The notes beneath the pieces were generated by a model that worked only from the letters and a program-made list of their open reading frames with translations, searched no databases and had not been told where the DNA came from. From Planctomycetia bacterium (GTDB lineage: Bacteria > Planctomycetota > Planctomycetia > JALXBF01 > JBGPMX01): a stretch of DNA of 64,000 bases. The stretch is from contig DAIOWH010000009.1 in assembly GCA_036758585.1 (NCBI GenBank), forward strand, positions 1,573-65,572. The letters are read 5' to 3'. The translations under genes and the position numbers were made by a program. Positions 42,259-63,388 of the stretch are shown in pieces (position 1 is the stretch's first letter; each line of letters begins with the position of its first letter).

Positions 42259-44289
42259 GTGTCTATCCAACGCCAGATTGTTCTTGTCCTTGCTGTGCTG
42301 GCCATCGTGGTCGCTGTGGTCAACCACAAGGTCCTGCGGGGGTGGGCACGTATTTCGCAACCAGCATCGTCGGTCACACCGTGGCGCCCTCCGGGGTATG
42401 TGGGTGATGAGAGTTGTGCGGGTTGCCATGCAGATATCGCGAAGAGCTACGCGCGTTGTGAGATGGCGAATTCTTGGGGCTTGGTTTCTGAGTCAAGACA
42501 CGTCGAACCACCGGCGACTGTCCACGACAACAAGTCGGGAATGTCCTATGAGATGCAATGGCGCGAAGACCGGTTGTTTGTGCGTGAGTTTCGATTGAAC
42601 AACAACGGGGAAGAGATTCATAGTTTGGAGGTCGAGGCCACACACCATATTGGTTCCGGTAGGCATGGACGCGCCTACGCGACCAACTCCGACGGCTACC
42701 TAACGAAGATACCGGTTGGCTGGTATGCGGATTTTTCCAAATGGGACATGGGGCCGGGTTACGAAACAACGAATCTGCGCTTCGACCGCCCGATCATTCC
42801 GGAATGTGTCGGGTGTCACGGTTCGTTCCCTTCTTTCATTGCCGGGACCGAAAACAAGTATCGCCAGCCGCTACCGGGGCAAGTTGGATGCGAGCGGTGC
42901 CACGGTCCCGGCGCTGATCACGTGGCCGCGCGTGCCAAAGACCCCGCAGCCGCCGAGACTCGCGGTGATGGCGACCCTACGATCGTCAATCCTGCCCGAT
43001 TGCCCGTAGAGCTCGCTCAAGACGTTTGCCTGCAATGCCATTTGCAGGCCGAGATCATGGTGGATCAGCCCGGTGTCGGGCTGATTGATTATCGACCGGG
43101 ACAGCGGCTGCGCGACTTTCGCAGCTATTTCTTCAGTGGCGACCAGGATCCCGCCAAGCCCGCGTCCGTTGGACACGTTCCGCGATCGCACTTGAGCCGC
43201 TGTTATGTCGAAAGTGGCGGCAAGATGACCTGCTTCAGTTGCCATGATGTGCATCGTGCGCTGGACGAGATTCCCGCTGGCTTCTACAACAACGCCTGTT
43301 TGAACTGTCATGGCGAGCGCGGTTGTTCGAGGTCCCTTGCCGCCGGCGAGGCGCCTCTGGGAGACTGCGTGAAATGCCACATGCCACGAGTCGCCAGCGG
43401 AGACATTGGTCATGCGGTGACCACGGAGCATTGGATTCGTCGCGACGCCACGCAGGGCGCCTTGGTAGAGACAACCAAGGCAGCGGCGAGCAGCCCACCC
43501 CGAGGTTTTTTCGGCGATGAGGCGGATGGTCAGATCGGAGCTGCGATCGTTCGGTCGGTCGCCCATCGCTCCGATCCCCAGACGCTTCGGACGGCTTGCG
43601 AGTTGCTGGAAACCGCAGTGAATCGGCAACCAGAGGCGTTGTCGTGGCGTATTGATCTGGCGACCGGTTACTTCCACGCGGGTCGATTCGCCGATGCGAT
43701 ACGTTTGCTGGAGCATGTAACGCGCGTTCAGCCGGACTCCACGGAGGCCTGGGACCTGCTAGGACAGAGCTATGGAAGTCTTGGTCAGTTTGACCGATCT
43801 GTAGAATCATTTGAACAGGCGATTCGTCGTCAGCCGGACTATGCCGGAGCGGACTTCAAGCTTGCGTTGTTGTACTTGCGCCAGGATCGCATGGACAAGT
43901 TGCTGGACGCTTCACGACGATACTTCGAGCGACACCCGGACAATCCGAGAGTACTGGGACTTGTCGCCCAGGCCCAGTACACCTTCGCACGACAACCGAG
44001 AGTCGCGCTTGCCACGCTGGAACGAGCGAGGGGGCTGGACCCTAGTCTCGTAGCGTTATCCTTGCTCGAAGCCCGAATCGCCTCCGAGTTGGGTGACGAG
44101 CGGGTTGCTGAGGGGGCGTTGCGGAGGGCCCTGGATGTGCAGCCCGACCTTGTGCCGGCGTACTTGCAACTTGGTACGCTCTTGGTCCGTCAGCGCCGCC
44201 TTGACGACGCACGAAAGGTACTGATGGAGGCCCTGAAACTACAGCCGGCCAACGCCGAGATTCACCGGATGATACAACAACTCCGATGA
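42259..44289 (+). CDS. Multiheme cytochrome c (7 CXXCH) fused to C-terminal TPR repeats
   Basis: CAGCH, CVGCH, CERCH, CLQCH, CFSCH, CLNCH, CVKCH. N-terminal signal anchor. C-terminal 250 aa are TPR-like. Confidence 0.8.
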   Translation: MSIQRQIVLVLAVLAIVVAVVNHKVLRGWARISQPASSVTPWRPPGYVGDESCAGCHADIAKSYARCEMANSWGLVSESRHVEPPATVHDNKSGMSYEMQWREDRLFVREFRLNNNGEEIHSLEVEATHHIGSGRHGRAYATNSDGYLTKIPVGWYADFSKWDMGPGYETTNLRFDRPIIPECVGCHGSFPSFIAGTENKYRQPLPGQVGCERCHGPGADHVAARAKDPAAAETRGDGDPTIVNPARLPVELAQDVCLQCHLQAEIMVDQPGVGLIDYRPGQRLRDFRSYFFSGDQDPAKPASVGHVPRSHLSRCYVESGGKMTCFSCHDVHRALDEIPAGFYNNACLNCHGERGCSRSLAAGEAPLGDCVKCHMPRVASGDIGHAVTTEHWIRRDATQGALVETTKAAASSPPRGFFGDEADGQIGAAIVRSVAHRSDPQTLRTACELLETAVNRQPEALSWRIDLATGYFHAGRFADAIRLLEHVTRVQPDSTEAWDLLGQSYGSLGQFDRSVESFEQAIRRQPDYAGADFKLALLYLRQDRMDKLLDASRRYFERHPDNPRVLGLVAQAQYTFARQPRVALATLERARGLDPSLVALSLLEARIASELGDERVAEGALRRALDVQPDLVPAYLQLGTLLVRQRRLDDARKVLMEALKLQPANAEIHRMIQQLR

Positions 44290-44323
44290 AGCTCTGTTGC
44301 ATGACCTGATTCCGAGAGGGCAG

Positions 44324-45544
44324 ATGAAAAAAACGCTTTGTGCCAGTATGTGCCTGGCCCTGGTCGGAGCTTGGTGGTACGTACGGTTTCATGCTGCAAC
44401 GCCGGACTCTGCGGCAGACGTGCCTCATGTACCCCCTGTTGCTGGTGGCTACGAGGTTTTGTCGCCGAACGGGGCAGATCCGAATGAGTACGTTGGTTTT
44501 CAGGCATGCGCCCCGTGCCATGATTCAATCTGCAAAGCACAGAACGCCAGCCACATGGCGAATTCTCTCAAGACTGTTGCCGAGTATCAGCAGGAGAAGG
44601 GGGTGCTGCCCCCCGCCAAGTTTTACGACGAACAGAACGATATCCGATATGAAGTCGTCGCATCGGGGGACCAACTCTACCTCAGCGCCGCGTGGCGGGG
44701 ACGGTCCGCGCAGGCGCCATTTACCTACGTCCTCGGTTCTGGCCTTCAGGGCCTGTCGTTTCTCCACGAGCGGGGTCCGCAGGACTTTCAAGAATTGCGC
44801 CTGAGCTTCTACACGAAGGCTCGCGAATGGGACTTCACCGGCGCCCAAGAGGACGTACGGCCGGAGAGTATGGAACAGGTTCTTGGAAGCATAGAACCAG
44901 GACGAGGCATGCGCTGTCTGCGATGCCACTCCACGTTATTGGTGCATGACGGAACTAAGCTCATGCGTAACGAGTCGCGGTTTGGCGTAACGTGCGAGCG
45001 ATGCCATGGTCCGGGTCGGGCGCACGTACAGGCCGCGTGGCGAGGGCAGCACGTACCGATTGGCGACCGACCATTCGAACGGGCCATGCAAGCAGCCAGG
45101 AGCGCTACGGAATTCCGAGAAGCGGCATCCCGTCGAGATTCCGTAGTCTGTGGGGAGTGTCACGGAAACGATGCGTTGAGCCCGAACGTTCCCGACTTCT
45201 ATCTTTCTCGATTCCCAATCGCCGCATTGCCGCAGAGCAAGTGTTACCGCCAGAGCCTGGGGAAACTGCTTTGCACGGATTGCCACGACCCGCATTCCAA
45301 TGCGGAGCACGATGATATGAGTCGCTACGTACGAGTGTGCTTGGTATGTCATGGAACGAAAAACGCCGACACGAAGACCGGCTCAGCCCATCTGGTACCG
45401 CCTCCGGTCAGAAACTCGTGTACCGTTAATCCCGACGACGGCTGCATCGGCTGTCACATGCCGAAACGCGAACCCGTCTATCGGGGGATATTCACGCACC
45501 ACCGCATCGCTATTCATGCATCGGACGAATCAAATGATCCGTAG
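44324..45544 (+). CDS. Multiheme cytochrome c (7 CXXCH), paralog without TPR tail
   Basis: CAPCH, CLRCH, CERCH, CGECH, CTDCH, CLVCH, CIGCH. Signal peptide from ATG 44324, with GAGAGGG SD. Confidence 0.8.
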   Translation: MKKTLCASMCLALVGAWWYVRFHAATPDSAADVPHVPPVAGGYEVLSPNGADPNEYVGFQACAPCHDSICKAQNASHMANSLKTVAEYQQEKGVLPPAKFYDEQNDIRYEVVASGDQLYLSAAWRGRSAQAPFTYVLGSGLQGLSFLHERGPQDFQELRLSFYTKAREWDFTGAQEDVRPESMEQVLGSIEPGRGMRCLRCHSTLLVHDGTKLMRNESRFGVTCERCHGPGRAHVQAAWRGQHVPIGDRPFERAMQAARSATEFREAASRRDSVVCGECHGNDALSPNVPDFYLSRFPIAALPQSKCYRQSLGKLLCTDCHDPHSNAEHDDMSRYVRVCLVCHGTKNADTKTGSAHLVPPPVRNSCTVNPDDGCIGCHMPKREPVYRGIFTHHRIAIHASDESNDP

Positions 45545-45588: not shown

Positions 45589-47538
45589 ATGCTTGGTTTC
45601 CCAATGAACCCACGCGTACGCAACTCCGTCTCCTTTGTTGCCCTGCTGGTGCTTGGGTTGTCTGGCGTCCTTATTGTGCGGTTCGTTCGGGATCCGAGGA
45701 TCGACAACGACATTCGTGGCGGCGGCCAACCAGCCGTCGGGCTGGGCTATGTCGGTATGGCTCAGTGTCGGGTCTGTCACAGTGCCATTGCAGCCAGCTA
45801 CGCGAAGACCGGCATGGGCCGCTCGTTTGGCCCTGTTGATCCCGAAACAGAGACCGGAGATTTCACCGAGAACAACCAGTATCACTGGGAGGCACGCGAC
45901 CGCCGTTACGAGATGAAGCAGGAAGGCAATGACTTGTTCATGACGGCTTTCAGTGTCGACTTCAGAGGGCGTCGCGAGCGCGAGCGACAAGAACGGATCA
46001 CGCACTGGTTGGGTTCCGGTGAGCGCATGCGCGGTTACCTGAGCTTGCAAGGAAGTCGATATCGTTTGCTCCACCTGGCTTGGTACGGTCCGCGAAACGA
46101 ATGGGCGCCGTTTGCGATGCGCGAATCAGGGGCTCCCGCGGACGACTGGGTCGGATACAACTGTTTCTACTGTCACGCCAGCTATCCGCGTAACGCGATT
46201 GGGGCGAAGTCGATTGCCGAGGTCGATCATCGTTCGGATGCGTTGCAGCTAGGCGCGATCGATTGCGAGCGTTGCCACGGTCCGGGCGAACAACATGTCC
46301 GGCTGGCTCAAAACCTATCCGAAGCGGCGGCGATCCGCGCCGCCATCGTCAATCCTGCCCGTTTGCCGCTGGAGCGGCAGCTCGACGTCTGCGGCCAATG
46401 CCATCTTGAACCGACCACACAGTTCCCAGTGCATCGACTCATCGCTGCTCAAAAGAGCCCCTTCAGCTTTCGGCCCGGCGACCGCCTCGACGACCATTTC
46501 GTGATCTTCGACTTCGACGATCCAGACATGCACCATGACGAAGACACGGACATCGTCAATCAAAGCTACCTCTTGGTTCAGTCTGCGTGTTTTCAACAGA
46601 GCGATGGCCGCATGACATGCACTACGTGCCACGATCCGCACCACACACCTCCGCCCGAGGAGCGTGCCGCCTACTTTCGGGGGAAATGCATGAATTGCCA
46701 CGCACTTGGTGACTGCACTGCCCCCGACCTCAACCACGAGTCGCTCGCGGGCAGCGATTGCGCGAACTGCCACATGACTCCAACCTACGCCGTAGACGCA
46801 GTCCGCGCCCTGGTCCACCGACACAAGATCGAACGCCGGCCAATCTCCAACCGTGATACTTCGCCCGAACAAAGACTCGCCCACACGCAGCGAGTCTATG
46901 CCGCTGGCGCCAACCGTACACGCCTCAAGCTGTACCTGGAACATCCGGACCTGTTGCCGGAGGACCGAGCGGCATGGCTCGCACTTGGGCGACTACACAA
47001 CTCCTATGCCGGCGATGGACCGACGGAGTTGCAAGGTGCAATAGATCGCAGCGGCATCGTCAACGACCCAGAGACCCGTCTGCTTCTTGGCCAGCTCCAC
47101 CTCACTCGGAGGAATCCGATCGCAGCTCGAACCGAGTTCAAGCGTGCGCTGCGCATCGCCCCGGCTTTCTCGTCTGCGACCGTGGGGCTGGCCCAAGCTG
47201 AGCTGCTCGCAGGCAACTCGTCTCGCGCAATCGAGTTGTTCCGTCAAGTACTCGCACAGCGCCCCCTGAATCTAGCGGCGCGGCAGGGGTTAGCCGACGC
47301 GTATCGGGCGATGAAAGACGAGCGGGGCACGCAGGACGCTTACGCCGCATGGCAGGCGGCACTTGACCATCACCTTGACATCGAATCGGCCACTCAGTTG
47401 GCCTACTGGCTGAATCAGGCGGGTCGAAGGCAGGAGGCTGTCACGTTCCTGCGCGCCGCCCTACGGGTCAATCCAAACGATGCAGCGGCCCAGACCGGTC
47501 TGGAAAGGTTGCTGCGCGAGTATCCTGACCTGCGCTGA
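45589..47538 (+). CDS. Multiheme cytochrome c (7 CXXCH) fused to C-terminal TPR repeats, paralog
   Basis: CRVCH, CFYCH, CERCH, CGQCH, CTTCH, CMNCH, CANCH. TPR tail. Confidence 0.8.
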   Translation: MLGFPMNPRVRNSVSFVALLVLGLSGVLIVRFVRDPRIDNDIRGGGQPAVGLGYVGMAQCRVCHSAIAASYAKTGMGRSFGPVDPETETGDFTENNQYHWEARDRRYEMKQEGNDLFMTAFSVDFRGRRERERQERITHWLGSGERMRGYLSLQGSRYRLLHLAWYGPRNEWAPFAMRESGAPADDWVGYNCFYCHASYPRNAIGAKSIAEVDHRSDALQLGAIDCERCHGPGEQHVRLAQNLSEAAAIRAAIVNPARLPLERQLDVCGQCHLEPTTQFPVHRLIAAQKSPFSFRPGDRLDDHFVIFDFDDPDMHHDEDTDIVNQSYLLVQSACFQQSDGRMTCTTCHDPHHTPPPEERAAYFRGKCMNCHALGDCTAPDLNHESLAGSDCANCHMTPTYAVDAVRALVHRHKIERRPISNRDTSPEQRLAHTQRVYAAGANRTRLKLYLEHPDLLPEDRAAWLALGRLHNSYAGDGPTELQGAIDRSGIVNDPETRLLLGQLHLTRRNPIAARTEFKRALRIAPAFSSATVGLAQAELLAGNSSRAIELFRQVLAQRPLNLAARQGLADAYRAMKDERGTQDAYAAWQAALDHHLDIESATQLAYWLNQAGRRQEAVTFLRAALRVNPNDAAAQTGLERLLREYPDLR

Positions 47539-49396
47539 CCAAACGAGCTGGTGAGGGAATGCTCTGAACCATACGTGGTTGCAGGCCCTCGACAAGTCGG
47601 AGCCATCCTTCCCCCGCTACGTCGTCCCATTCATCGATGCGACCAGACGGCCAGTGAACGATCAGTTTGTCCACGGACTTATCCGTTCCAAGGCCGAGCA
47701 GGATTCTCCGGTCACTGGCCGACTGGTAGCTTCCCCCACCGGTGACTTCTCGTACTAATCTGCGTTCCTCAACTCCGTCATTGTTCAGCATGGCCTCCAC
47801 GCGAACGTTGACGCCATTGCGATTCGACTCGCGCCCCGCAAACTCCAGCATCAGGACGTGCTGGGAATCTCGCGTTTCATTGTGCAGCACAGCAGTCGGC
47901 ACATAGTGGTGGACCACGGCGATGTCGGTCCTGCCATCGTTGTCAAAGTCACCAAACGCGGCGCCACGTCCTATCCATTTTTCAGCGAAGTACGAACCTG
48001 CCAGATGCGCTACGTTGGTGAATCGACCGAGTCCCGTGTTGCGCAGGAGCGTAGGGGGCATAAGGTCCGGGACCGACCCCGGACCTTTCGCCAGGTAGCC
48101 GTTCGTGGCAAACAGATCGAGCCAGCCGTCATTGTCGTAGTCGAGAAAGGCCGTGCCCCATCCCATCGAAGCCCGAGTCACCGCGGTGATGCCTGTTACT
48201 CGACTGGCGTCGCCAAACCCGGCCTGACCTAGGTTGCGATACAACGTCAGGTATTCGAGGTAGAAATTGGTGACGCCCAAATCCAACAAGCCGTCCCCGT
48301 CGTAGTCCCCGCAGGCAATTCCCATGCTGGCCTGCGAAAGTCCCTCGGCGTTTAGTGCCGCGCCCCACTCGACGGCCTTGTCTTCAAGGCGAAGTGACGG
48401 CCCACGAGCCAGTGCGTCTCTTGGGGCGTCGCCGGCCAAGTTGTGCAGCAGCGTATTTGGCTCCGCGTCATTGGCGATGTAGATGTCCGGTCGACGATCG
48501 CTGTCAAAGTCTGAGATGACGATTCCGAGGGCCTTGCCTGGTGGGACGTTCATTTCCGCGGCGATGTCGTAGAACGTGCCATCGGTCATGTTGAGCAGGA
48601 CCACCTGGGGTAGCGGTCCAAACTTCCTGGGCCCACAATAACTCGGCTGTTCGCCCTTGCCGTCGAGACACTGCGGAGCCGTCTTGGGGTCGAAATCAGT
48701 GTAATTGCATACACAGAGATCGAGTGCACCATCGAGATTCAAATCTCCAAACCCACAACTGGAACTCCACAATCGGGAATCGGCCGCGGCCTCGACGGTC
48801 ACATTGCTGAACGTCCCGTCGCCGCGGTTGCGATACAGGACATTCGATCCGTAACATGTGACGTAGAGATCATCGAACCCGTCGTTGTCATAGTCGCCTA
48901 CTCCACAACCTTGGCCATAGCCGTTGTGTCCCACATTCGCTGCTTGGGTTACGTTGTGAAACCCGCCCTCGCCGTTCCTATACAATTGCGATGTATGGCT
49001 GAAGTCCTTCGGGTTTTCGGGTAGCTGGCAACCGTTGACGAGGTACAGATCGAGTCGCCCGTCGCCGTCGAAGTCAATCCAAGCCGCGCCGCCTCCGTTG
49101 ACCTCGGGCACCCAGAACTGTCCGCTCTCGCCTCGGAAAAAGGTGAAGTCGATTCCCAACGCGTGGGCGATGTCCGCAAAACTTGGCGGCGGGAATCGGA
49201 CAGTTTCTGGCCGGCCATTGCTGGTCTCTGGAACCTCACGGCCCGGCGGAATTGGTTCAGAAACGCGGCTGCCCATCAGACCGACGCCGACCGAAGGGGC
49301 AGCGGACCTGGTCCGGAGCAACTTCCAAGACGCAACGGAAGAGAGTGCCGTCAACACGACCGCGGTTCCGAGTACGCCGAGTCGCCTCCCCGACAT
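47468..49396 (-). CDS. CRTAC1-family FG-GAP/ASPIC-UnbV repeat protein (secreted)
   Basis: Signal peptide. FG-GAP Ca loops (DFDGDGRLDLYLVN, DYDNDGFDDLYVTCYGSN, DYDGDGLLDLGVTNFY, DYDNDGWLDLFATNGY). UnbV_ASPIC C-terminus (GGGSYQSASDRRILLGLG). The 3' end overlaps the convergent cytochrome gene by about 70 nt. Confidence 0.8.
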   Translation of the reverse strand: MSGRRLGVLGTAVVLTALSSVASWKLLRTRSAAPSVGVGLMGSRVSEPIPPGREVPETSNGRPETVRFPPPSFADIAHALGIDFTFFRGESGQFWVPEVNGGGAAWIDFDGDGRLDLYLVNGCQLPENPKDFSHTSQLYRNGEGGFHNVTQAANVGHNGYGQGCGVGDYDNDGFDDLYVTCYGSNVLYRNRGDGTFSNVTVEAAADSRLWSSSCGFGDLNLDGALDLCVCNYTDFDPKTAPQCLDGKGEQPSYCGPRKFGPLPQVVLLNMTDGTFYDIAAEMNVPPGKALGIVISDFDSDRRPDIYIANDAEPNTLLHNLAGDAPRDALARGPSLRLEDKAVEWGAALNAEGLSQASMGIACGDYDGDGLLDLGVTNFYLEYLTLYRNLGQAGFGDASRVTGITAVTRASMGWGTAFLDYDNDGWLDLFATNGYLAKGPGSVPDLMPPTLLRNTGLGRFTNVAHLAGSYFAEKWIGRGAAFGDFDNDGRTDIAVVHHYVPTAVLHNETRDSQHVLMLEFAGRESNRNGVNVRVEAMLNNDGVEERRLVREVTGGGSYQSASDRRILLGLGTDKSVDKLIVHWPSGRIDEWDDVAGEGWLRLVEGLQPRMVQSIPSPARLVSAGQDTRAATFPDRSGPLHRLD

Positions 49397-50781: not shown

Positions 50782-50800
50782 ACCAGTTTCCAACCTCCGT

Positions 50801-52688: not shown

Positions 52689-53807
52689 ATGACAATTCGA
52701 AAACAATGGAATGGGTTCACGCTGATTGAGTTGTTGGTTGTCATCGCCATTATCGCCGTGCTGATCGCGTTGCTCTTGCCTGCCGTACAGATGGCTCGCG
52801 AGGCGGCCCGGCGAAGTCAATGCCGTAACAACATGAAGCAGATTGGCCTCGCCCTCGCCAACTACCACGACACGCACGGTGTATTTCCGATGGCACGGGT
52901 CCAGCCGTGGAGCTATCCCGGCGGTGCCCAGGCTGGAAACATTGCGAGCCAGAACGTACTGCTACTGCCATTCATGGACCAGCAGGCTCTGTACAACTCA
53001 TTCAACAATGACGCGGGATGGTATCAGTCTGGGCCCTGGGGCGGGTGGGTCGGCTCTGGCCCGGGCGGTGGTGGCCAGGGTGGCTGGGGCGTGCAGGACG
53101 CCGCGAATATCACCGCTGTCTGCACACCAATCGACACGTTCATGTGTCCATCCGATCCGGTAGGAGGTAGGACCCCGGGTCAGCAGTACGGCAACTCAAG
53201 TTATGCGGTGAATGCCGGCCGCCGCGCGGGGAACATGGGGCACTGGGGTTATGTCAGTGTGCCACCCGACAGCCGTCCCGGCATCGCTCAGTATGTGGAG
53301 GTCGGCTGGCGACAAAAGTGCTTTAGTTCGGCTGATATTAGCGATGGCTTGAGCAACACCGCAGCGTTTGCCGAATGGCGAAAGGGCAACGGCGATTCAA
53401 ACCTGACGCCAGATGACTTTGGCAAGCCCAACGGAGCTGTGTGGCATTTGAACACGGGGGCTTCGTGGGGAGGAACGGCGGGGTGGGATGCAAACGAGCG
53501 CGAGTGTAACGGAACGGATCCCCATACCCCAGCAGGCTACTGGCCACATCAAGGGTATTTCTGGGCGTATGGAGCGGGCGCACATACCTTCTACACGCAC
53601 GACGCGGCTCCGAACAAGAACAGTTGCTTGGCGAGTGGTTGGTGGGATGTTTCTGTACTAGCAAACGCCAGCAGTTACCATCCGGGCGGTGTAAACGTGC
53701 TGATGGCCGATGGCGCAGTGCGAAGCGTGGGCGACACCATTGCGCGTGATGTTTGGGCCGGAATAGGTACGTCCAACGGAAAGGAAGTCATTCCCGACGA
53801 GTTCTAA
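52689..53807 (+). CDS. DUF1559 (H-X9-DG) protein with prepilin-type N-terminal cleavage/methylation domain
   Basis: N-terminal [26 protein letters not shown]. The DUF1559 body is typical of Planctomycetota. GGAGG SD. Confidence 0.85.
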
Positions 53808-55569: not shown

Positions 55570-56778
55570 ATGTCCAGACGCTGGCCTATCTTGCTGGCAC
55601 TCACCCTAGCCGTCGGCGGCGCCGGCGCGTGGTGGACCGTACGCAGCCAGGTCTGGACCTGGCAGGCGGAGCGGGCCATGCGCGCGGGTCGTTGGAACGA
55701 CGCTTGGGACCTTTCACAGAAACTCTTGGCAAGAGACTCGGAAGACGGGTTGGCACATATGGCAATGGCCGGCGCCCTATCCGCTCGGGGCGAGTTTCAC
55801 GTGGCGCTGACGCAGCTTCGACTCGTTGCCGGCGATTCTTCCTGGGCCAGTCGCGCCGCTCGGCGGGAAGGCGAAATACTCTTGCTGCTTGATCGCGCTT
55901 CAGAGGCGGAGACTGCGCTTAGACGTTGTGTAGATCTATGCCCAAGAGACTCCGAAGATTCCATCGTCTCCCGAATACTGTTGGTAAAAATCTACCGGTG
56001 GCTGGGTCGTCAGTTCGACGCGATGTCGCTCCTTGAGTATCTCTACCGGGACGGCGAGACATCCGGTGACGTCGCAACGCGGGTCGCTTCTTTGGTCCAG
56101 ATGTTTCTTGTCGAGTATGGCGAACATGATCCAAAGGCGAGAGCGACGATGTTGCGACGTTTTGTGGCCAACGATCCACAGTATGTTGCCGCGCGAGTGG
56201 CTTTGGCTCAGCAGGAGTTTCCCAACGGCGACCTTGGCTCAGCCCTGCAAGAGTTACAGCTGTGTCTGCAAGCGTCACCGCAAGACGTGGAGTGTCGCCA
56301 ATACCTTTTGGAGTACGGACTGCACGTTGCCGGCGCCGAACCTCGCTCGTTGGAGCCGCTGCTTGATGGGTGGCCTGCAGAGAGGCGAGGTTTCCAGTAC
56401 TATCGACTGCTCGGTGAGCTTCGTCTTCGTCAGGAACGCCTGGATGATGCCATCAGTGCGTTCCGTGACGCCAACAAGATTCGTCCCGACCAGATTGGAG
56501 TTCGCCACCAGCACGGCATGGCACTGATGCGCCAAGGCCGCGAGACCGAGGCCAACCAGGAGTTGCGCAGGACGGAGGAGCTAAGGAGGGCGTTGGACTA
56601 CGAGCGAGTGAAACGGCTTTTCGACGGCATTCCGAAACACATCGAGATGGGAAGGGTGGGTTCGGCCGACGCCCCGATGCTGCGCAGACTGGGCAGCTTC
56701 TACGAAGAGATTGGCCGCCGAGATCTTACCCAGCGCTGGTTACGAGAGGCCGACCGACTGAAGTCTGGGCATCGTTAG
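55570..56778 (+). CDS. Membrane-anchored TPR-repeat protein
   Basis: N-terminal TM (WPILLALTLAVGGAGAWW) followed by TPR repeats. Confidence 0.65.
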   Translation: MSRRWPILLALTLAVGGAGAWWTVRSQVWTWQAERAMRAGRWNDAWDLSQKLLARDSEDGLAHMAMAGALSARGEFHVALTQLRLVAGDSSWASRAARREGEILLLLDRASEAETALRRCVDLCPRDSEDSIVSRILLVKIYRWLGRQFDAMSLLEYLYRDGETSGDVATRVASLVQMFLVEYGEHDPKARATMLRRFVANDPQYVAARVALAQQEFPNGDLGSALQELQLCLQASPQDVECRQYLLEYGLHVAGAEPRSLEPLLDGWPAERRGFQYYRLLGELRLRQERLDDAISAFRDANKIRPDQIGVRHQHGMALMRQGRETEANQELRRTEELRRALDYERVKRLFDGIPKHIEMGRVGSADAPMLRRLGSFYEEIGRRDLTQRWLREADRLKSGHR

Positions 56779-56791: not shown

Positions 56792-58870
56792 TCACTCGGG
56801 AGTCTCGCGAAGTCGCCTAATTCGTTCGCGCAGCCCCGGCAACGTGGGTGCTTCGTGATTTACTCGCTCAAGCAGCTCGCATGCCTCAATCAGGTTCCCC
56901 TCCTTCTCGTGCAGTTCGGCTGCTTCCATGAGCAAATCCAGTCGCCGCGGGTTGATCCGCAGAGCCTGATTGTAGGCCGCGATGGCATCCGTGCGGCGCC
57001 CCTCACGAATGTACATGAAAGCCAGACTGGTATGAGCGTCGATTGCATCAGGATTGATCGCAAGCGACTTGCCGATCGTTTCCACCGCCCTCGACAAGTT
57101 CTGATCGCTGATGTAGTAGCACATACCAAGTTGGATGAGCGCCGTGGCATCATAGGGGTTACGAGCGAGCACTTCCCCCAAGAGTTGAACGGAGTTCTCA
57201 ACTTGATCTTCTCGCATGTGGAGCGCCGCGAGCCGGCGATAGGCAGGCAAGTAGTCTGGCCATTGGCGAATCGATTGTTGATACATGCGTTTGGCGACGT
57301 CGAACAATCCGACCGCCTCATACGCATCGCCAGAAAACGCGAGAGCTTTTTCCAAGTCGACAGATTCTGCAGCTCGCTCGTAGTTGCGGGCGGCGGCCAG
57401 CATGTCGCCCAGGTGGAACTGGGCTACTCCCAACACAAACCATGTCTCATAGTCTTGCGGATCTTGCTTCGAGGTTCCGCGCAAGATGTCGGCCGCCTTC
57501 CGCAGAGTCCCTATCGAACGGTCGCCGGGATGTTGATCGAAGTAACGGATCTGGGCGATCGCCCAAGACCGTTGGCTCTGCGTTTGCGAGTCTTTACGTG
57601 GCCAGTAACCAACCAGCTTGGGGGAATCGTGTTCGACCGGGGTCGCTGAGTCCGTTGTCCTCTGTGGCAGGTTCGCTTGCGGTTTTCGAATCCAATGGTC
57701 GGTGAATACGACGTGGGCGATGTCGGCAACCTTGGCGCGCGGCATGTGGCATTCCACGCAATCGTCGCTGCTCGACGCGTCGGCTAGGCCTCCGCAATCA
57801 GCTCGCTCGTGGCAATTCAGGCAACGCTCTATGTAGTGGCGTCTTGGGACTTCCTTCAGCGGTAGGTGCGGATCATGGCAATAGTCGCAGGTCATGTGTC
57901 CCCTTGTCGGACCCTCGGTCCAGCATCGGCTCTGAGCTGTTCGCGGCCCGTGACTCGCAAACCCGAACTTCTCAGTGCTGGAATTCTGAATCAGGAAGTC
58001 CTCGCGAAAGTCGGCTAGCCGCATTCCGGGTCGGAAATCGGCCATCATTCTTCCCTTCCTCGCGAACTGGGCATCGGGAATCAAGTGGCATTGCAAGCAG
58101 ATGTCGTTCTTCCGTGGATGGTCCAGGCGCTCTGGGTTCACAATGGTTCGGTCGGTGTCGCCGTCAAGCACTGGCCTGCGTCGCCGTTCGCGTACATGAC
58201 GCTCACCGGGTCCGTGACATTGCTCGCACCCCAAACCTTGTTCCGGCAGGAAGGCATAACGGTTTTGCGACCCCTGGACATATGACACCCTGCCGGCATG
58301 ACATGCCAAGCACTCGTGGGGGATAGGACGGTCAAACCGTAGGTTCATCTCCTTGTACCCAGGACTCAGGTCCCAAATTCCGGCATCGGTGTAGATTCCA
58401 ATGGGCATTGCCGTGAGGTAACCGTTTGCGTCGGTGACAAACCCCTTCCCATGCGATCCCGAACCTATCGCATAGCGCGCCTGCCGAACTAGGCTGTGAA
58501 CCTTGCGGTCCGTTTCATCGTGACGGAATTCCTCCTGAAAGTACCGCCCATCTTCGACGAAAGCCCGGTAGGAGAAATCTCGACGCGCGTCGTGAACTGT
58601 GCTTTTCTCCCAACCGTCAGTAGCCATCTCCTCAGGTGTCAGTGCATGCCATGATCTTCCCATCTCGCTCCGCTTGAACTGGGCGTAAATACGATCATGG
58701 CACTCCGAACAGGCCTCGTCGCCCACATAAGCGACCAGAGGATCCCAGTTGGTGAATTCGCTTTGTTCGCCCGCCCCCTGCGCGAGCCACCAGACTACGG
58801 GACAACACCCGAGCGTTGCCACTGCGAGGAGTATGAACCTAGACCAACTCTTGTTCGTAGAAAGGCCCAT
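56792..58870 (-). CDS. Multiheme cytochrome c (7 CXXCH) fused to C-terminal TPR repeats, paralog
   Basis: CSECH, CLACH, CEQCH, CLQCH, CDYCH, CLNCH, CVECH. TPR tail. Likely start at the internal ATG (MGLSTNKSW...), which gives a signal peptide. Confidence 0.75.
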   Translation of the reverse strand: MGLSTNKSWSRFILLAVATLGCCPVVWWLAQGAGEQSEFTNWDPLVAYVGDEACSECHDRIYAQFKRSEMGRSWHALTPEEMATDGWEKSTVHDARRDFSYRAFVEDGRYFQEEFRHDETDRKVHSLVRQARYAIGSGSHGKGFVTDANGYLTAMPIGIYTDAGIWDLSPGYKEMNLRFDRPIPHECLACHAGRVSYVQGSQNRYAFLPEQGLGCEQCHGPGERHVRERRRRPVLDGDTDRTIVNPERLDHPRKNDICLQCHLIPDAQFARKGRMMADFRPGMRLADFREDFLIQNSSTEKFGFASHGPRTAQSRCWTEGPTRGHMTCDYCHDPHLPLKEVPRRHYIERCLNCHERADCGGLADASSSDDCVECHMPRAKVADIAHVVFTDHWIRKPQANLPQRTTDSATPVEHDSPKLVGYWPRKDSQTQSQRSWAIAQIRYFDQHPGDRSIGTLRKAADILRGTSKQDPQDYETWFVLGVAQFHLGDMLAAARNYERAAESVDLEKALAFSGDAYEAVGLFDVAKRMYQQSIRQWPDYLPAYRRLAALHMREDQVENSVQLLGEVLARNPYDATALIQLGMCYYISDQNLSRAVETIGKSLAINPDAIDAHTSLAFMYIREGRRTDAIAAYNQALRINPRRLDLLMEAAELHEKEGNLIEACELLERVNHEAPTLPGLRERIRRLRETPE

Positions 58871-59177
58871 GTTCGTCAGTCGTACGGGTGTGTGAAATAA
58901 CACACGGAACTTGTCAAACCGCAAGCCGCAGACGAGCGCGTTGTTGGATCGTGCACAACGTCGAAACGGCCGAAACGCGCGCTTGCGGCCATGACGAGTT
59001 GCCACAGAATCTTGCCAGACAGCCGCACCGTCGCCACTTGCACGACATCCAACTGCCTTGTAGCATGGCGGTCACTGTTATCATCTAGTTCCTGTTGCTG
59101 GTTTGCAACTCGCCTGTCGTCATGGGGATGGGGACAACGCGACGTTGCCGCCGAGCGCCTTCTTCAGGAATACGAAC

Positions 59178-60968
59178 ATGGGAAGGACTAAGTTCCCTCC
59201 TGCCGTGACGCTCGTTGTCCTTGCGATTCTCGTAGGTGCGCTGTTGGGAACGGCTTCCGCCTTCCTCATGCGCTCGCAGTCGCAGGCAGTACACAGCGTA
59301 GCGGCACCTGACACCACCTCCAAGTCACCCGATCTCTCGCCACCTGCAGAACCGATTGCGCTTCCTGAAGCTGATCGCCAGCTTATTTGGGACGCAGAAC
59401 ATCACGCATTGGAATTGTCCAGGAGAGCCATCCCTCAGCTAACCCGCGCACTTAAGGAGCGTAATCTCGACGCATTGCTGGGTCAGTTTGCGGGCGAGTT
59501 TGAAGGCTCCCTGCCAAGTCTCGAGAATAGCGCGTCGCGGAGCCACGGTCCCCTTCATACCCGGGTCTATTCCGCAAGTCCGGAATTGGGCACGACTGAC
59601 TCCGAAGAATTCTGCCATGCACTCTTACGACTAATAGCTTCGTTTGAAAGAGTCGACGGCGCACAGTTGGCGGTCACGGAGTTTCGACCCGAGTCGCAGT
59701 CGTCCACTGAGCCTTGCTGGGGTGGACGCTGGAAGTTGCGACTATGGGGAACAACGGTGGATAGCCCTTGCGAATTCGTCATGGATGGTACTTTCCGCGT
59801 CGCATCGGTGGAACCCGAGGCCCTTGCCTCGGACGGCTGGCTCTTGGCGTGGAACAGTTCGGAGGGCGAAATGCGAACGGCGGAGGCGCCCCTCATGCGG
59901 CAGGCTGCCGACCAGTTTGGATTCGCCGTCGAGGACCTATTTGACTCCTGGCAGTTCACCAGTGGACCTCCGCCCGTCATTTCGGGGGGCGTCTTTGTAT
60001 CAGATTACGACGGCGATGGACGCCCAGATGTTCTTGTTTCGGACATTCTGAGGGGCAACATGTTGTACCGAGCGGCCACCGATGGGACCGTCTCAGAGGT
60101 GGCAGCGCTCGCAGGGGTCTCGCCTATCATAGAATCTGGCAGACCTGTCATGTGGTTCGACTTTGACAACGATGGATTCGACGACCTCTTGATGGGAAAG
60201 GTACTCCTCAAGAACTGTGGTACCGGCGAGTTTGCGGATGGAGCGTCAAGCCTTGGTGTGAGCAACCTGCCAGTGGCATCGGGGTACGTAGTGGCCGATT
60301 ACGACAACGATGGATTGTTGGACTTCTATCTCGCGCGCGCCTCGGGCGGACCGAAATCCGGTCCCGGGAAACGAAGCTCGTGGCTCCGAGACGAGACCGG
60401 CCCCGGAAACCAATTGTGGCGGAACTGCGAAGGGAGCTTCGAAGACGTGACCGCCGACACCAATGCATCTGCCGGTCGCAGGTCCACGTTTACCGCTGCA
60501 TGGCTTCACGCCGACGCCGACCCACTCATTGACTTGGCCGTCATTGACGAGTTTGGCGCTCCTGTCCTGCTGCGCAACCTGGGCGGCAGTTTTGAACAAC
60601 GCCCGCTGACGGACGGGTTTGGGGGGTTCTGCATGGGGATCGCGACGGGTGATCTCGATAGCGACGGCCAAACAGACTTGTACATGGCTAACATGTACTC
60701 GAAGGCGGGCAATCGGATATTCGCAAATCTCAGAGAAGATGTGTACCCAAACGAAGTGTATAGCAAGCTCATGGAGTTTACGCGAGGTAACGAAATCCAA
60801 CGCAACTTGGGGAACGGCAAGTTCGAGAAGAAGGGTCTTGCTGCCCGAGTCAACGATGTAGGATGGGCCTACGGACCGGCGATGTTTGACGTGGACAATG
60901 ATGGCCGCTTGGACTTGTACTCGCCAGCCGGATTCCAGAGTATCTCGCGCGACGAACCCGATGGCTGA
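59178..60968 (+). CDS. CRTAC1-family FG-GAP/ASPIC protein, N-terminal part, terminated by an in-frame TGA
   Basis: Signal peptide from ATG 59178. FG-GAP loops (DYDGDGRPDVLVSD, DFDNDGFDDLLMG, DYDNDGLLDFYLA, DLDSDGQTDLYMANMY). The stop TGA at 60966-60968 is in frame with the downstream UnbV_ASPIC ORF. Confidence 0.65.
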   Translation: MGRTKFPPAVTLVVLAILVGALLGTASAFLMRSQSQAVHSVAAPDTTSKSPDLSPPAEPIALPEADRQLIWDAEHHALELSRRAIPQLTRALKERNLDALLGQFAGEFEGSLPSLENSASRSHGPLHTRVYSASPELGTTDSEEFCHALLRLIASFERVDGAQLAVTEFRPESQSSTEPCWGGRWKLRLWGTTVDSPCEFVMDGTFRVASVEPEALASDGWLLAWNSSEGEMRTAEAPLMRQAADQFGFAVEDLFDSWQFTSGPPPVISGGVFVSDYDGDGRPDVLVSDILRGNMLYRAATDGTVSEVAALAGVSPIIESGRPVMWFDFDNDGFDDLLMGKVLLKNCGTGEFADGASSLGVSNLPVASGYVVADYDNDGLLDFYLARASGGPKSGPGKRSSWLRDETGPGNQLWRNCEGSFEDVTADTNASAGRRSTFTAAWLHADADPLIDLAVIDEFGAPVLLRNLGGSFEQRPLTDGFGGFCMGIATGDLDSDGQTDLYMANMYSKAGNRIFANLREDVYPNEVYSKLMEFTRGNEIQRNLGNGKFEKKGLAARVNDVGWAYGPAMFDVDNDGRLDLYSPAGFQSISRDEPDG

Positions 60969-60989
60969 CCGTGCATCTGGCAAGCTGCC

Positions 60990-61604
60990 GTGTCGCAGCC
61001 GTACAACCGAGCAGCCCAATTGCCGCCGCTCGGCGAACTGGATGGCGAAATCGGCGAGTTCTGGATCGGAAACCCTTGGGGATTCCATGGCGAGCGGAAG
61101 AACCTCAGTTGTTATGAGCGCAATCGCCTGTTCGTCAATGACGGTGACCTTCGGTTCTACGATGCCTCCTATTTGAGCGGTACCGACAGCGAGGGAGATG
61201 GCCGCTCAAGCGTCGCCGCCGACCTGAATCGGGACGGAATGCTCGAACTCATTGTGCGCCAAGTCGGGGGCGGAAGCCTGCTGGTCTTCGAGAATCAATT
61301 CCCACGCAAGCGGTTCCTGACCGTGCTCCTCCGGGGTATTCAGAGCAATCGAGCGGGCGTCGGCGCAACCGTGATGCTAAAAGCAGGTGGACAGGTGCAA
61401 ACACGTGAAATGTTCCCTGCGAATTCCTTCATGTCGCAATCGCCGAGCGAAGTTCACTTCGGGTTAGGTGAGGCGGAGGTTGTCGAACAGTTGAGAGTAC
61501 ATTGGCCGTCTGGCGTGATTCAGGAGTTCCACAATCTGCCATCCGACAAGATTCTGCTCATCCAAGAGTCATACGACTCGCCGCACATCATCGCAGCCCG
61601 TTGA
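60990..61604 (+). CDS. UnbV_ASPIC C-terminal domain fragment (same frame as the preceding ORF; one gene interrupted by TGA)
   Basis: 60990-59103 is divisible by 3. Its UnbV_ASPIC C-terminal domain follows the FG-GAP repeats, as in intact paralogs. Confidence 0.55.
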   Translation: MSQPYNRAAQLPPLGELDGEIGEFWIGNPWGFHGERKNLSCYERNRLFVNDGDLRFYDASYLSGTDSEGDGRSSVAADLNRDGMLELIVRQVGGGSLLVFENQFPRKRFLTVLLRGIQSNRAGVGATVMLKAGGQVQTREMFPANSFMSQSPSEVHFGLGEAEVVEQLRVHWPSGVIQEFHNLPSDKILLIQESYDSPHIIAAR

Positions 61605-61621
61605 AGGCGTTCGGTGTGATC

Positions 61622-63388
61622 ATGAGGCAAGTCAGTTCGACGGGTTCTCAGTCGCCCGCTCCACGGGTTCTGCCCTCTCCCATGCTCCTATGGTTTTGCG
61701 GCTTTTGCGTCTCGTGCGCGCGCGTCCCGGCTCCGGTGTCCCGCGCACCAAGCCTCGTGCCTCAGCCTCACGCAAGTACAACGGCGCCGGCCTCGATATT
61801 CTTTACGGACGCGACCGATAACACGGGGCTGAACTGGAGACATGTGAGTGGAACGACGTCCGAAAAACACTTCCCGTCTGCGAATGGTTCGGGCCTAGCC
61901 GTCTTGGACTACGACGGCGACGGTTGGATGGACCTCTATCTTGTCACATCATGCTTCCTGTCAACAAAAGTCGGGATTGATCCGCGGAACGCGGTCTGGC
62001 GCAACCGATCGCAAACGGTTTTCGAGGACGTTACCGTCTCGACCGGACTTGGTGTCGGTGGGTTTGGCCAAGGAGTTGCGGTCGCTGATTTCAACAACGA
62101 TGGATTCCAGGATGTGTACCTGCCCCGATACGGGATGAACGCACTGTTCCGCAATAGCGGCGACGGGACGTTTGTCGACTGCACTGAGGAATCGCAAGCC
62201 GGCGCTTCCACCTGGGGAGTTAGTGCGGCATTCTTCGACTACGACGAGGACGGTAACCTGGATTTGTACGTTGCCAACTATGGAAAATGGTCCGTTGACA
62301 CCAGTGAATTCTGTGGCGATAAAGCGCGAGGTATCCGTATGTACTGCTCTCCACAATCGGTGCCTCCCGAATCACACGTTCTGTTCCACAATACGGGAGT
62401 CGGCGTTTTTGAGGATGTGACTGGCAGTATGGGAATAGACCGCACCGATGGCCGTGGGCAGGGGGTGGTGGCTGCCGACCTCAACGCAGATGGTCATTGC
62501 GACCTCTACGTGGCCAATGACCTCGGCCCAAACTTCCTCTTCATTAACGATGGGCAGGGGAGGTTACTGGACCAAACGGACACCTCCGGTGCAGCATATA
62601 ACGAGATCGGACGCGCCGAAGCGAGCATGGGCGTCGATGCCGGGGACGTTCGTGGCGACGGCAGGGTGAGCCTCTTTGTCACAAACTTCGAGGATGAACA
62701 TAACACGCTCTACGACAGCCTCGGCAGCGGCTTGTTTCAGGATGTTAGTTCCATGTCCGGCGTGGCTGCCGGGAGCATTCCGTACGTGGGTTGGGGCGCC
62801 GCGCTGGAGGATCTCGACAACGACGGCTGGCTTGATATCTTCGTCGCCAACGGCCATGTAGACGACAACCTCCACGACTTCGGTCGCAGTAGCCCTCATG
62901 AGCAACCGGCGGTTATTTGGCGCAATCGCGGCAGAGGGGCTTTCGATGTGGTGCGCGAGGGAGCCGGGGAGTATTTCCTGACTCGCCACTCGAGCCGCGG
63001 GGTCGCCTTCGGCGACCTCGACAACGACGGCGACATTGACCTGGCCATCTCGCACAAGGATGCGCGCCCGACCGTGCTGCGAAACGATTCATGCCAACGC
63101 GAAGCCAGCAAGGACAACGGTTGGATTCAGTTAAGGCTCGTGGGAATCTGCCAAAACCGCGATGCAATTGGGACCGCGGTGGAGGTGCATCTCGATGACC
63201 AACGGCTGCACAGGCAGATTCGAGGCGGAAAGAGTTATGCGTCCGCACACGACTACCGGCTGACTGTCGGAACGGGCAAGGCGCAGAAGATCGACCGACT
63301 GGTCGTCCGGTGGCCCGGCGGCAAGACGACGGGGGCGGTCCCGCCCAAGCTACGATCGACCGTTACGGTCCGCGAGCCGATCGACTAG
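61622..63388 (+). CDS. CRTAC1-family FG-GAP/ASPIC-UnbV repeat protein (secreted)
   Basis: Signal peptide (MLLWFCGFCVSCA). FG-GAP loops (DYDGDGWMDLYLVT, DFNNDGFQDVYLPRYG, DYDEDGNLDLYVANYG, DLNADGHCDLYVAND, DLDNDGWLDIFVANGH, DLDNDGDIDLAISH). UnbV_ASPIC C-terminus. Confidence 0.8.
   Translation: MRQVSSTGSQSPAPRVLPSPMLLWFCGFCVSCARVPAPVSRAPSLVPQPHASTTAPASIFFTDATDNTGLNWRHVSGTTSEKHFPSANGSGLAVLDYDGDGWMDLYLVTSCFLSTKVGIDPRNAVWRNRSQTVFEDVTVSTGLGVGGFGQGVAVADFNNDGFQDVYLPRYGMNALFRNSGDGTFVDCTEESQAGASTWGVSAAFFDYDEDGNLDLYVANYGKWSVDTSEFCGDKARGIRMYCSPQSVPPESHVLFHNTGVGVFEDVTGSMGIDRTDGRGQGVVAADLNADGHCDLYVANDLGPNFLFINDGQGRLLDQTDTSGAAYNEIGRAEASMGVDAGDVRGDGRVSLFVTNFEDEHNTLYDSLGSGLFQDVSSMSGVAAGSIPYVGWGAALEDLDNDGWLDIFVANGHVDDNLHDFGRSSPHEQPAVIWRNRGRGAFDVVREGAGEYFLTRHSSRGVAFGDLDNDGDIDLAISHKDARPTVLRNDSCQREASKDNGWIQLRLVGICQNRDAIGTAVEVHLDDQRLHRQIRGGKSYASAHDYRLTVGTGKAQKIDRLVVRWPGGKTTGAVPPKLRSTVTVREPID

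Follow-up and report, generated by a model that had tools for sequence, protein, structure and literature searches.

Heptaheme cytochrome-TPR proteins, CRTAC1/ASPIC propellers and TPR anchors: a proposed envelope module in a planctomycete gene array

OcwA, the nonaheme cell-surface reductase of Thermincola potens (PDB 6I5B), and the FG-GAP beta-propeller proteins CRTAC1 (9ETN) and UnbV (protein E4 of the enediyne cassettes) are the described proteins closest to the products of a gene array of about 22 kb, which is analysed here. The array lies in a stretch of 64,000 nucleotides, called the window below, from a planctomycete-type genome (contig DAIOWH010000009.1, assembly GCA_036758585.1). Open reading frame (ORF) listing and Pfam scans of the window proteins show that it encodes three kinds of proteins: heptaheme cytochromes, most of them with a tail of tetratricopeptide repeats (TPR), CRTAC1/ASPIC-UnbV propellers (ASPICs hereafter), and TPR proteins anchored by a transmembrane (TM) helix. 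All twelve genes that a first-pass annotation of the window had named in the array were recovered with Pfam at their coordinates (Table 1). We propose that the array holds several paralogous copies of an envelope module, made of TPR anchor, propeller and heptaheme-TPR cytochrome, and acting as a periplasmic redox complex. That the three-part set is a real functional unit is very probable; to the complete proposal, redox role included, we give an even chance.

Propellers have been found coupled to c-type heme proteins before. Heme-containing homologues of hydrazine synthase flank a CRTAC1-family gene, i.e. a member of the same propeller family, in non-anammox taxa (PMC12758564), and in the uet cluster of Tenderia c-type heme proteins are coupled to secreted NHL propellers (10.1101/2022.05.06.490989). 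Both systems differ from the array in their heme-protein families, gene order and taxa, and no TPR anchors are reported for them. A review of the OcwA/OmhA superfamily (PMC9250108) does not mention the heptaheme-TPR family, and literature searches returned no description of this family or of the three-part module. As sequence families the components are already known, and the module itself appears to be undescribed.

Cytochromes and propellers compared with their described relatives

Each of the four array cytochromes, cyt1 to cyt4, contains exactly seven CXXCH motifs, and TPR tails are present in cyt1, cyt3 and cyt4. The first-pass annotation was right in seeing three tandem seven-heme cytochromes of which two carry TPR tails, the tail-less one being cyt2. 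This protein is 24% identical to cyt1, and TPR-less relatives of it are known in the family (P0025 and P0128, for example). Among 101 homologues the seven CXXCH motifs are invariant or nearly so, and likewise M69, H221, H332, H391, M375 and H385; judging from the alignment, the conserved His and Met residues would be sufficient for six-coordination of all seven hemes. In the OcwA/OmhA/MccA/c554 clade, a group of NrfA-related multiheme cytochromes, one or two catalytic hemes are penta-coordinated and have distal His-His motifs. The family is large. Among the 8,000 candidates scored it comprises at least 1,950 clusters at the 90% identity level; at the 50% level, 1,470 representatives reach E ≤1e-30, nearly all of them 580-790 aa long. 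In databases its members are labelled 'tetratricopeptide repeat protein' or bear generic TPR names (PilF, TadD, CcmH/NrfG). A search of NCBIfam found no specific model for the cytochrome-TPR proteins, the ASPICs or the read-through product of asp3 (see below), and its decaheme models scored 42-64 bits on the array cytochromes, versus cut-offs of 192-325.

When a profile of the cytochrome domain was compared with the PDB, OcwA (6I5B) came out on top with an E-value of 1.5e-19. The next matches were 6R2Q chain A (5.7e-14), OmhA (3.4e-12), c554 (1.1e-8) and MccA (2e-6), and NrfA was also found. The identities of entries 6I5B and 6QVM were looked up; 6R2Q chain A, a chain of 333 residues that carries the label cystathionine beta-synthase, we take to be MtrA. 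Structure comparison gave the same answer: with the AlphaFold2 (AF2) model of cyt1 (pLDDT 90.3, pTM 0.83), Foldseek returned OcwA as best match (6i5b, E 1e-8, probability 1.00, TM-scores 0.54/0.45) and MccA as a weak second, and the structural alignment of the cytochrome domain with OcwA has 15-16% identity. The model places a beta-sheet domain at residues 73-164, between hemes 1 and 2. In OcwA, residues 75-156 form a beta-sheet insert at this very place, common to MccA (PMC6703420). A tetraheme, c554-like stretch, recognised by Pfam as Cytochrome_C554, lies within the cytochrome domain. We conclude that this domain is OcwA-like in sequence and in predicted fold.

The array cytochromes depart from OcwA in several respects. 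They have seven hemes instead of nine, they possess an additional N-terminal TM helix (a lipoprotein-like signal in the Bacteroidota members), and a TPR solenoid of ~250-290 aa occupies the place of the C-terminal three-helix bundle of OcwA; in the model, no long helices close the heme domain, and the TPR repeats come next. The family also differs from OcwA in being found in diderms (Planctomycetota, Bacteroidota, Rhodothermales, Marinimicrobia, Gemmatimonadota and Acidobacteriota). The periplasmic decahemes MtrA/DmsE show a partial profile likeness, and the array cytochromes are distinguished from them by their seven hemes, their TM anchor, their TPR tail and the lack of a porin or outer partner. 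Attachment of c-type heme takes place outside the cytoplasm, and no further TM segment follows the N-terminal one; heme domains and TPR tails must therefore both be periplasmic.

Such relatives raise the question of an extracellular electron transfer conduit, akin to the Mtr/porin-cytochrome systems or to OcwA-type reductases, in which the propellers would have a stabilising role like that of NHL propellers. The best solved relatives, OcwA (a terminal metal reductase), MtrA and OmhA, speak for it (PMC6703420; PMC9250108), and so does the uet cluster of Tenderia, where multiheme cytochromes occur together with NHL beta-propeller genes (10.1101/2022.05.06.490989). However, the Pfam scan of ORFs of at least 150 aa across 41-64 kb of the window revealed neither a porin-like beta-barrel nor a second cytochrome for the cell surface, every scanned ORF being assigned elsewhere. 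Moreover, the N-terminal TM helix anchors the cytochromes to the cytoplasmic membrane, and aerobic-type Bacteroidota commonly possess a family member as a lone gene in a housekeeping context. We consider a conduit of this kind improbable. The first-pass annotation had suggested extracytoplasmic electron transfer or redox sensing, coupled to a propeller that binds a substrate. Among the versions of this function, classical extracellular electron transfer is unlikely given the lack of porin and surface cytochrome genes in the array, and so is sensing, because no signalling output domain is encoded there.

Concerning the propellers, Pfam FG-GAP_3 matched them at 1e-29 to 1e-42, and UnbV_ASPIC was above the Pfam cut-off in asp1, asp2 and asp4, as well as in asp0, a gene located outside the array. 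Invariant Asp/Gly calcium loops of the DxDxDG type are seen in the ASPIC alignment. With the AF2 model of the asp1 propeller (pLDDT 89.1), the top Foldseek match was murine CRTAC1 (9etn_A, E 3e-26, TM-scores 0.63/0.73, 591 columns), which is also the sole sequence match in the PDB; the structural matches that follow are GlcNAc-binding fungal lectins, rhamnogalacturonan lyase and integrin alpha chains. The array proteins thus share with CRTAC1 and UnbV the FG-GAP propeller, the DxDxDG loops, the C-terminal UnbV_ASPIC and the fold. They differ in being membrane-anchored, in being paired or fused with TPR anchors, in being accompanied by a heptaheme cytochrome in some clades, and in including one paralogue that probably contains selenocysteine (Sec). 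Unlike in the UnbV cassettes, no enediyne polyketide synthase genes are found near them. CRTAC1 contains an EGF-like domain, for which the array propellers gave no Pfam match. The asp1 homologue search yielded 7,978 matches among 8,000 candidates scored; these proteins are called 'CRTAC1 family protein' at NCBI (Planctomycetes, Pirellulales) and 'enediyne biosynthesis protein E4', presumably UnbV, at JGI.

Fusions and linkage in other genomes

Among the 120 best asp1 homologues, ~18 are fusions of 830-1017 aa, with TPR at the N-terminus and ASPIC at the C-terminus. The tpr1 protein aligns (~390 aa, E 1e-22) with the N-terminal 400 aa of the fusions that are 970-1000 aa long, and asp1, colinear with it, aligns with their C-terminal halves; tpr3 aligns over its full length with the N-terminal part of another fusion, P0278. 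The tpr1-asp1 pair, which has the same strand and order and a gap of only 20 bp, is therefore a split form of the fusion. Gene fusion is a classical sign of physical association, and the sequences suggest that TPR anchor and ASPIC propeller form one unit.

The TPR proteins might instead be apocytochrome chaperones, similar to CcmI/CycH/NrfG, that mature the neighbouring multiheme cytochromes. Pfam TPR_CcmH_CycH (PF23914) does exceed its cut-off of 42 bits on cyt1 (57.1 bits) and tpr2 (57.6 bits), and JGI gives the name CcmH/NrfG to some homologues, but generic TPR families outscore it on the same residues. No ccm or nrf heme-lyase gene was found in the array or in the related loci, and ASPIC, rather than the cytochrome, is the partner with which the TPR genes are paired and fused. 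A chaperone role is extremely improbable in our view.

Linkage of the cytochromes to ASPIC genes was analysed in 80 loci from GTDB species genomes, on the contigs of the closest homologues, and in 80 metagenome loci; 179 cytochrome domains, from two public collections, were clustered. The metagenome scan was aimed at the cyt1 clade, gave only relatives of 30-40% identity, and was used as a broad sample. In the GTDB loci, an ASPIC was present within 10 kb of the cytochrome in none of the 73 non-planctomycete loci (Bacteroidota, Rhodothermales, Marinimicrobia and others), versus 3 of the 7 planctomycete ones. Of the 80 metagenome loci, 13 carried an ASPIC, immediately adjacent in ~10 of them. 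Taking as adjacent an ASPIC within 500 bp, the clades behave differently. Bacteroidota-type cytochromes had none (0/85, and none within 10 kb either). Adjacent ASPICs were found for 6/7 in the clade of cyt1 and cyt4, which comprises the cytochromes of locus L084, for 4/6 in a soil clade (cluster 1), and for 4/9 in cluster 4, which includes a Pirellulales metagenome-assembled genome and freshwater and marine metagenome contigs. The Isosphaeraceae/Gemmataceae clade, with 20 cytochromes, had 1 adjacent ASPIC and 4 nearby. Altogether, 18 of the 94 cytochromes that are not of the Bacteroidota type have an adjacent ASPIC, versus 0 of 85 (Fisher p = 4e-6), and the cyt1/cyt4, cluster-1 and cluster-4 clades share only 30-40% identity. 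No ASPIC was near the cytochrome in a Taibaiella, an acidobacterial and a planctomycete locus. In the Bacteroidota-type loci the neighbours are housekeeping genes (YceG, TyrRS, SOD, HtrA, ABC transporter) and therefore give no functional clue.

To the 22 loci where both genes are present, a within-locus permutation was applied. The nearest ASPIC was at 300 bp or less in 15 of them, for 5.6 ± 1.7 expected, and none of 20,000 shuffles reached 15. Adjacency is thus far more frequent than the permutations predict. In 12 of these 15 close pairs, ASPIC and cytochrome are on the same strand. The order that recurs is TPR, ASPIC, cytochrome-TPR, with 14-bp overlaps at some loci. At L094 (P0009) these three genes, the last with a 14-bp overlap, are followed by a further TPR gene and preceded by unrelated putA and CdiI-like genes. 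L086 and L096 (P0004, P0008) carry on one strand a Sec-type FG-GAP gene, TPR, ASPIC, TPR, ASPIC and cytochrome-TPR. L084 (P0016) reads DUF1559, ASPIC, two cytochromes, an ASPIC that overlaps the cytochrome by 14 bp, two TPR genes and a TPR-ASPIC fusion of 949 aa. L088 (P0019) has ASPIC, ASPIC, cytochrome-TPR, in an organism with a type IX secretion system, as judged from Por_Secre_tail domains on neighbour genes. At P0013, two ASPICs are 5.5 kb away from the cytochrome. The recurrent functional unit of the first-pass annotation is thus found again, in varying gene order, around the relatives of cyt1 and cyt4, and permutation excess and fusions sustain it; outside some clades it is absent. We conclude that linkage to ASPIC goes beyond chance, yet is limited to certain clades of the cytochrome family.

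Could three lineage-expanded gene families have come together merely by tandem duplication and chance, with no functional unit at all? Planctomycetes carry ASPIC, TPR and DUF1559 genes in multiple copies, and for one Rhodopirellula genome a paralogue family of 11 ASPIC/UnbV proteins is listed (PMC4807772 supplement). Another ASPIC is found 30 kb off the array, in an unrelated context, and the ratio of near to far ASPIC density around cytochromes is only ~2, in a test which is confounded because ASPICs occur in arrays, and which the within-locus permutation replaced. Nevertheless, clades of 30-40% identity and contigs from unrelated samples repeat the adjacency, strand bias, ORF overlaps and order, the three-gene core of L094 has unrelated genes upstream, and TPR-ASPIC fusions are common. 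At the Rhodopirellula density, and assuming a genome of ~8 Mb, ~0.03 ASPIC copies would be expected per 22 kb, versus 5 counted in the array (asp1, asp2, asp3 and asp4 being the individually listed propeller genes). Clustering in the array therefore exceeds chance. The array cytochromes are 24-34% identical to one another and the array ASPICs 36-47% (asp2 versus asp1 47%, asp4 versus asp1 and asp2 36-38%), which means that these are old paralogues rather than recent duplicates. Fortuitous assembly of the set is, on this evidence, very improbable.

Two further observations concern the cytochrome family. Tandem cytochrome-TPR pairs without an ASPIC neighbour exist at L036, L066, L074 (Rhodothermales), L063 and L120, so that the cytochrome has repeatedly been duplicated in tandem regardless of any link to the propeller. 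The length of the TPR tail was tried as a marker of ASPIC coupling and dropped, as the medians, 256 versus 246 aa, did not differ (p = 0.84).

The split propeller gene asp3

Selenoprotein candidates of ASPIC/UnbV-FG-GAP type were listed by Kim et al. (2016, PMC4807772, Table S9) for two Porphyra-associated planctomycetes. In the array, the first-pass annotation had called an 'ASPIC' at 59103-60968. This ORF does contain FG-GAP repeats, but UnbV_ASPIC is missing from it and is found in the next ORF (60990-61604, 204 aa). Both ORFs are in one frame and parted by a single TGA, at 60966-60968. Read through, asp3 encodes in order an anchor helix, an N-terminal domain of ~230 aa, for which domain scans gave no family match, the FG-GAP repeats, the TGA codon, the last blade and UnbV_ASPIC.

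The residues around the TGA are EPDG-U-PC-IWQAAV. The same TGA, within a PDG-U-x-C-x-W pattern, is present at L086, L096, L177 and L181, i.e. at five loci with asp3, and third-position (synonymous) differences are found among the five in the codons just past the TGA. A query spanning the junction detected 44 clusters of the downstream part (42-100% identity), as ORFs of 170-220 aa starting just past the TGA, and 12 clusters of the upstream part which stop at the TGA, 11 of them ending in ...PDG and 1 in ...PDE. In every database entry seen, gene callers had split the Sec-type FG-GAP/ASPIC gene. Among 85 matches, no homologue with cysteine at the Sec position was found, and the loop is absent from ordinary ASPICs; the nearest non-Sec relative has Gly at this position (PMC4807772 Table S9).

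A candidate bacterial Sec insertion sequence (SECIS) hairpin follows the TGA (Table 1). RNAalifold on the five homologues showed that two of them have U-A in place of C-G at one stem pair, both partners being changed, and that two sequences have one mismatched pair each; folds of single sequences were no better than those of shuffled ones, and Rfam at gathering thresholds had no match in the whole window. Covariation in the hairpin thus lends modest support to Sec recoding. The Sec insertion machinery was not found within the 64 kb of the window, whose only tRNA is tRNA-Ser(GCT). At L177-L180 (8021-15908), the homologue of asp3 is the immediate neighbour of selB, a transglutaminase-core gene, selA, selD and an Rdx-family mini-ORF of 52 aa. 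A sel operon of the same unusual form, transglutaminase-core gene included, has been described for Rhodopirellula strain P2 (PMC4807772). Because its homologue adjoins selB, selA and selD and the TGA is conserved, asp3 is probably a selenoprotein gene.

Compared by description only, the candidates of Table S9 in PMC4807772 have the same domains as asp3, are split at the UGA into two adjacent genes, and have a predicted SECIS. They are supplementary candidates, given without the motif, the extent of the family, the hairpin covariation or the link to cytochrome-TPR genes. A 2026 review and a 2025 prediction paper on prokaryotic selenoproteins do not mention an FG-GAP/ASPIC selenoprotein, and literature searches for one found no main-text description. 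The idea of a Sec-type FG-GAP/ASPIC protein is therefore not new, yet it has not been followed up in the literature. As to its surroundings, the TPR/ASPIC/cytochrome cluster begins with the Sec-type gene at L086 and L096, and in the window this gene is divergent from cyt4.

Proposed module, array layout and meaning

In the module as we picture it, a TPR protein anchored in the cytoplasmic membrane and facing the periplasm would form one unit with a Ca-binding, seven-bladed CRTAC1/ASPIC propeller, which would also face the periplasm. The third part would be a c-type cytochrome with seven hemes and a TPR tail of its own, anchored in the membrane and belonging to the OcwA/OmhA/MccA/c554 lineage. 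The TPR solenoids could dock the propellers and so keep them at the outer face of the cytoplasmic membrane, and the tail of the cytochrome may dock onto the same kind of propeller. The chain of seven hemes might then carry electrons from the membrane side to a redox centre or substrate that the propeller holds, or the other way round, the direction, the partner and the substrate of this relay being presumed. In asp3, the Sec-x-Cys pair, perhaps a selenenylsulfide, would be a centre able to accept or donate the electrons of the cytochrome. This picture is built on observed gene content, linkage and order, fusions, folds and recoded-TGA signature, and the OcwA-like fold taken together with the Sec-x-Cys motif of a propeller makes a redox role plausible. 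Electron flow between cytochrome and propeller is put forward tentatively, as somewhat short of an even chance. As for an unrecognised class of periplasmic oxidoreductases, in which propellers, the U-x-C form included, would be catalytic or hold the substrate and be wired to the membrane by a dedicated heptaheme cytochrome, we regard it as rather doubtful.

Several facts weigh against this proposal. Most members of the cytochrome-TPR family lack an ASPIC neighbour and sit among housekeeping genes, which means that the cytochrome has a propeller-independent function. In the window, unlike in the relatives, cyt1-3 and cyt4 are on the strand opposite to the nearest ASPIC. The 150 best representatives of the family (393-854 aa) include no protein in which a cytochrome is fused to an ASPIC, and the conserved neighbourhood yielded no quinol-oxidising partner or terminal enzyme. 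The conserved columns of asp1, asp2 and asp4 contain no cofactor or redox motif, apart from one invariant, disulfide-like Cys pair, so the canonical ASPICs may be pure binding modules. Finally, ASPIC density is only twofold higher near the cytochromes (0.64 versus 0.33 per 10 kb beyond 2.5 kb), and regional clustering and strict pairing are not fully separable.

The main rival is a non-redox TPR-ASPIC complex devoted to ligand or glycan binding, adhesion or uptake, next to which the cytochrome-TPR protein would be a general periplasmic electron carrier, merely co-located or co-regulated and passing no electrons to the propeller. The lectins, rhamnogalacturonan lyase and integrins which come after CRTAC1 among the structural matches of asp1 fit this scheme, as do the autonomy of the cytochrome family in Bacteroidota and the existence of fusions with TPR, none having been seen with the cytochrome. 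In the 22 ASPIC-positive loci no conserved partner was found beyond cytochrome, ASPIC, TPR and DUF1559, save antisense shadow ORFs and, in three related soil loci, a large TonB-receptor-like barrel (CarboxypepD_reg plus OMP_b-brl_4) upstream of the TPR-ASPIC-cytochrome set (L151, 5865-9584; L152; L173). A Plug-domain receptor is also near the module at L093 (13615-15885). These outer-membrane barrels are a possible hint of uptake across the outer membrane. Nevertheless, several distant clades have ASPIC and cytochrome paired on the same strand in such a way that their stop and start codons overlap, an arrangement typical of co-produced subunits, and the Sec-x-Cys paralogue shares clusters with the cytochromes in the window, at L086 and at L096. 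We judge the non-redox complex to be unlikely, and keep the periplasmic redox complex as our working proposal.

Table 1. Coordinates of the array genes and of other features of the window
Feature	Position	Strand	Description
tprX	41414-42049	+	210 aa on source contig; N-terminal TM helix (hydrophobic in translation); Pfam TPR_12 and related
cyt1	42259-44289	+	TM helix, heptaheme OcwA-like domain (~residues 40-396), C-terminal TPR tail
cyt2	44297-45544	+	heptaheme paralogue without TPR tail; Pfam matches to cytochrome families only
cyt3	45589-47538	+	heptaheme cytochrome-TPR, divergent paralogue
asp1	47468-49396	-	N-terminal anchor helix, FG-GAP beta-propeller, C-terminal UnbV_ASPIC (Pfam)
tpr1	49417-50850	-	TM-anchored TPR protein (Pfam); 20 bp upstream of asp1, same strand
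tpr2	50801-52138	-	TM-anchored TPR protein (Pfam, translation); leads the tpr2-tpr1-asp1 run
small ORF	52363-52635	+	90 aa, no Pfam family; called on source contig
DUF1559 protein	52689-53807	+	pseudopilin-like (N_methyl + SBP_bac_10, Pfam); 13 bp upstream of asp2
asp2	53821-55545	+	CRTAC1/ASPIC-UnbV propeller (Pfam)
tpr3	55570-56778	+	TM-anchored TPR protein (Pfam), 3' of asp2
cyt4	56792-59005	-	heptaheme cytochrome-TPR; divergent from asp3; likely true start ATG near 58870
asp3	59103-61604	+	single gene of 833 codons spanning the TGA at 60966-60968; likely start ATG 59178
candidate SECIS hairpin	60983-61000	+	15 nt past the UGA; 6-bp stem, loop CGUG(G/U)C
asp4	61502-63388	+	CRTAC1/ASPIC-UnbV propeller (Pfam); likely start ATG 61622, 18 bp past the asp3 stop
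NHL protein	8004-9422	+	NHL-repeat beta-propeller
asp0	10400-12247		ASPIC propeller
alpha-2-macroglobulin	13594-18768	-	bacterial type, 1,724 aa
UshA-like fusion	19578-21182	-	four hemes (c554-type) fused to UshA-like phosphoesterase
O-antigen-ligase-like protein	22635-24899	-	polytopic membrane protein with C-terminal TPR tail
spermidine-synthase-like protein	37193-40153	+	polytopic membrane protein with C-terminal TPR tail
DAO, first ORF	40325-40900	+	N-terminal Pfam half of FAD-dependent oxidoreductase
DAO, second ORF	40789-41397	+	C-terminal Pfam half of FAD-dependent oxidoreductase

The array probably has one member more than the first-pass annotation had listed, since tprX is located 209 bp 5' of cyt1, outside its coordinates. 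A hydrophobic N-terminal helix was present in every array protein examined by translation, and the models place it at residues 2-32 in cyt1 and 6-32 in asp1. The 3' ends of cyt3 and asp1 are convergent and overlap by 71 bp (47468-47538). The gap of 550 bp between the divergent tpr2 and DUF1559 genes contains the small ORF of Table 1. DUF1559 genes are near the module at L043, L050, L084 and L181 as well, and a fourth, DUF1559 component of the module is possible; since Planctomycetota have very many genes of this family, its vicinity could be due to chance.

Two genes outside the array had been counted by the first-pass annotation as further members. The cytochrome at 19.6 kb is unrelated: as a tetraheme protein fused to a UshA-like phosphoesterase, it was ruled out as a member of the heptaheme family. 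Its best NCBIfam match is NF041198, 'UshA-like (seleno)protein' (216 bits, below the cut-off of 275), and it has PCGC where the name of the model, UshA_like_PCGU, implies PCGU. The ASPIC at 10.5 kb, asp0, is real, but it is distant (24-27% identity) and adjoins a 2-hydroxyacid dehydrogenase gene instead of a TPR gene.

A change in base composition occurs at ~35000-36000, with a G+C content of ~64-69% at 2-34 kb and ~58-61% at 36-62 kb, and the entire array is in the lower-GC part, which could be an acquired island or mere regional variation. The alpha-2-macroglobulin and the NHL-repeat propeller belong to the high-GC part and are apparently unrelated to the array. TPR tails terminate two polytopic membrane proteins of the window, one spermidine-synthase-like and the other O-antigen-ligase-like, and seem to be a theme of envelope proteins in this genome. 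The two overlapping ORFs of the DAO oxidoreductase reflect a frameshift, i.e. a pseudogene or an assembly error.

Three large families without an assigned function, the heptaheme-TPR cytochromes, the bacterial CRTAC1/UnbV propellers and their TPR anchors, are brought together here, and as members of a conserved unit all three acquire a context that can be tested. Through the module, a propeller family already met in vertebrate cartilage and in enediyne cassettes becomes connected with kin of cytochromes that reduce metals and nitrite, and the probable periplasmic selenoprotein offers an experimental handle on the module. Were the propellers to belong to a new oxidoreductase class, this would be the first biochemical role for the bacterial CRTAC1/UnbV family. 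If the redox proposal is true, the module would represent a new envelope electron route in planctomycetes and in other soil and water bacteria.

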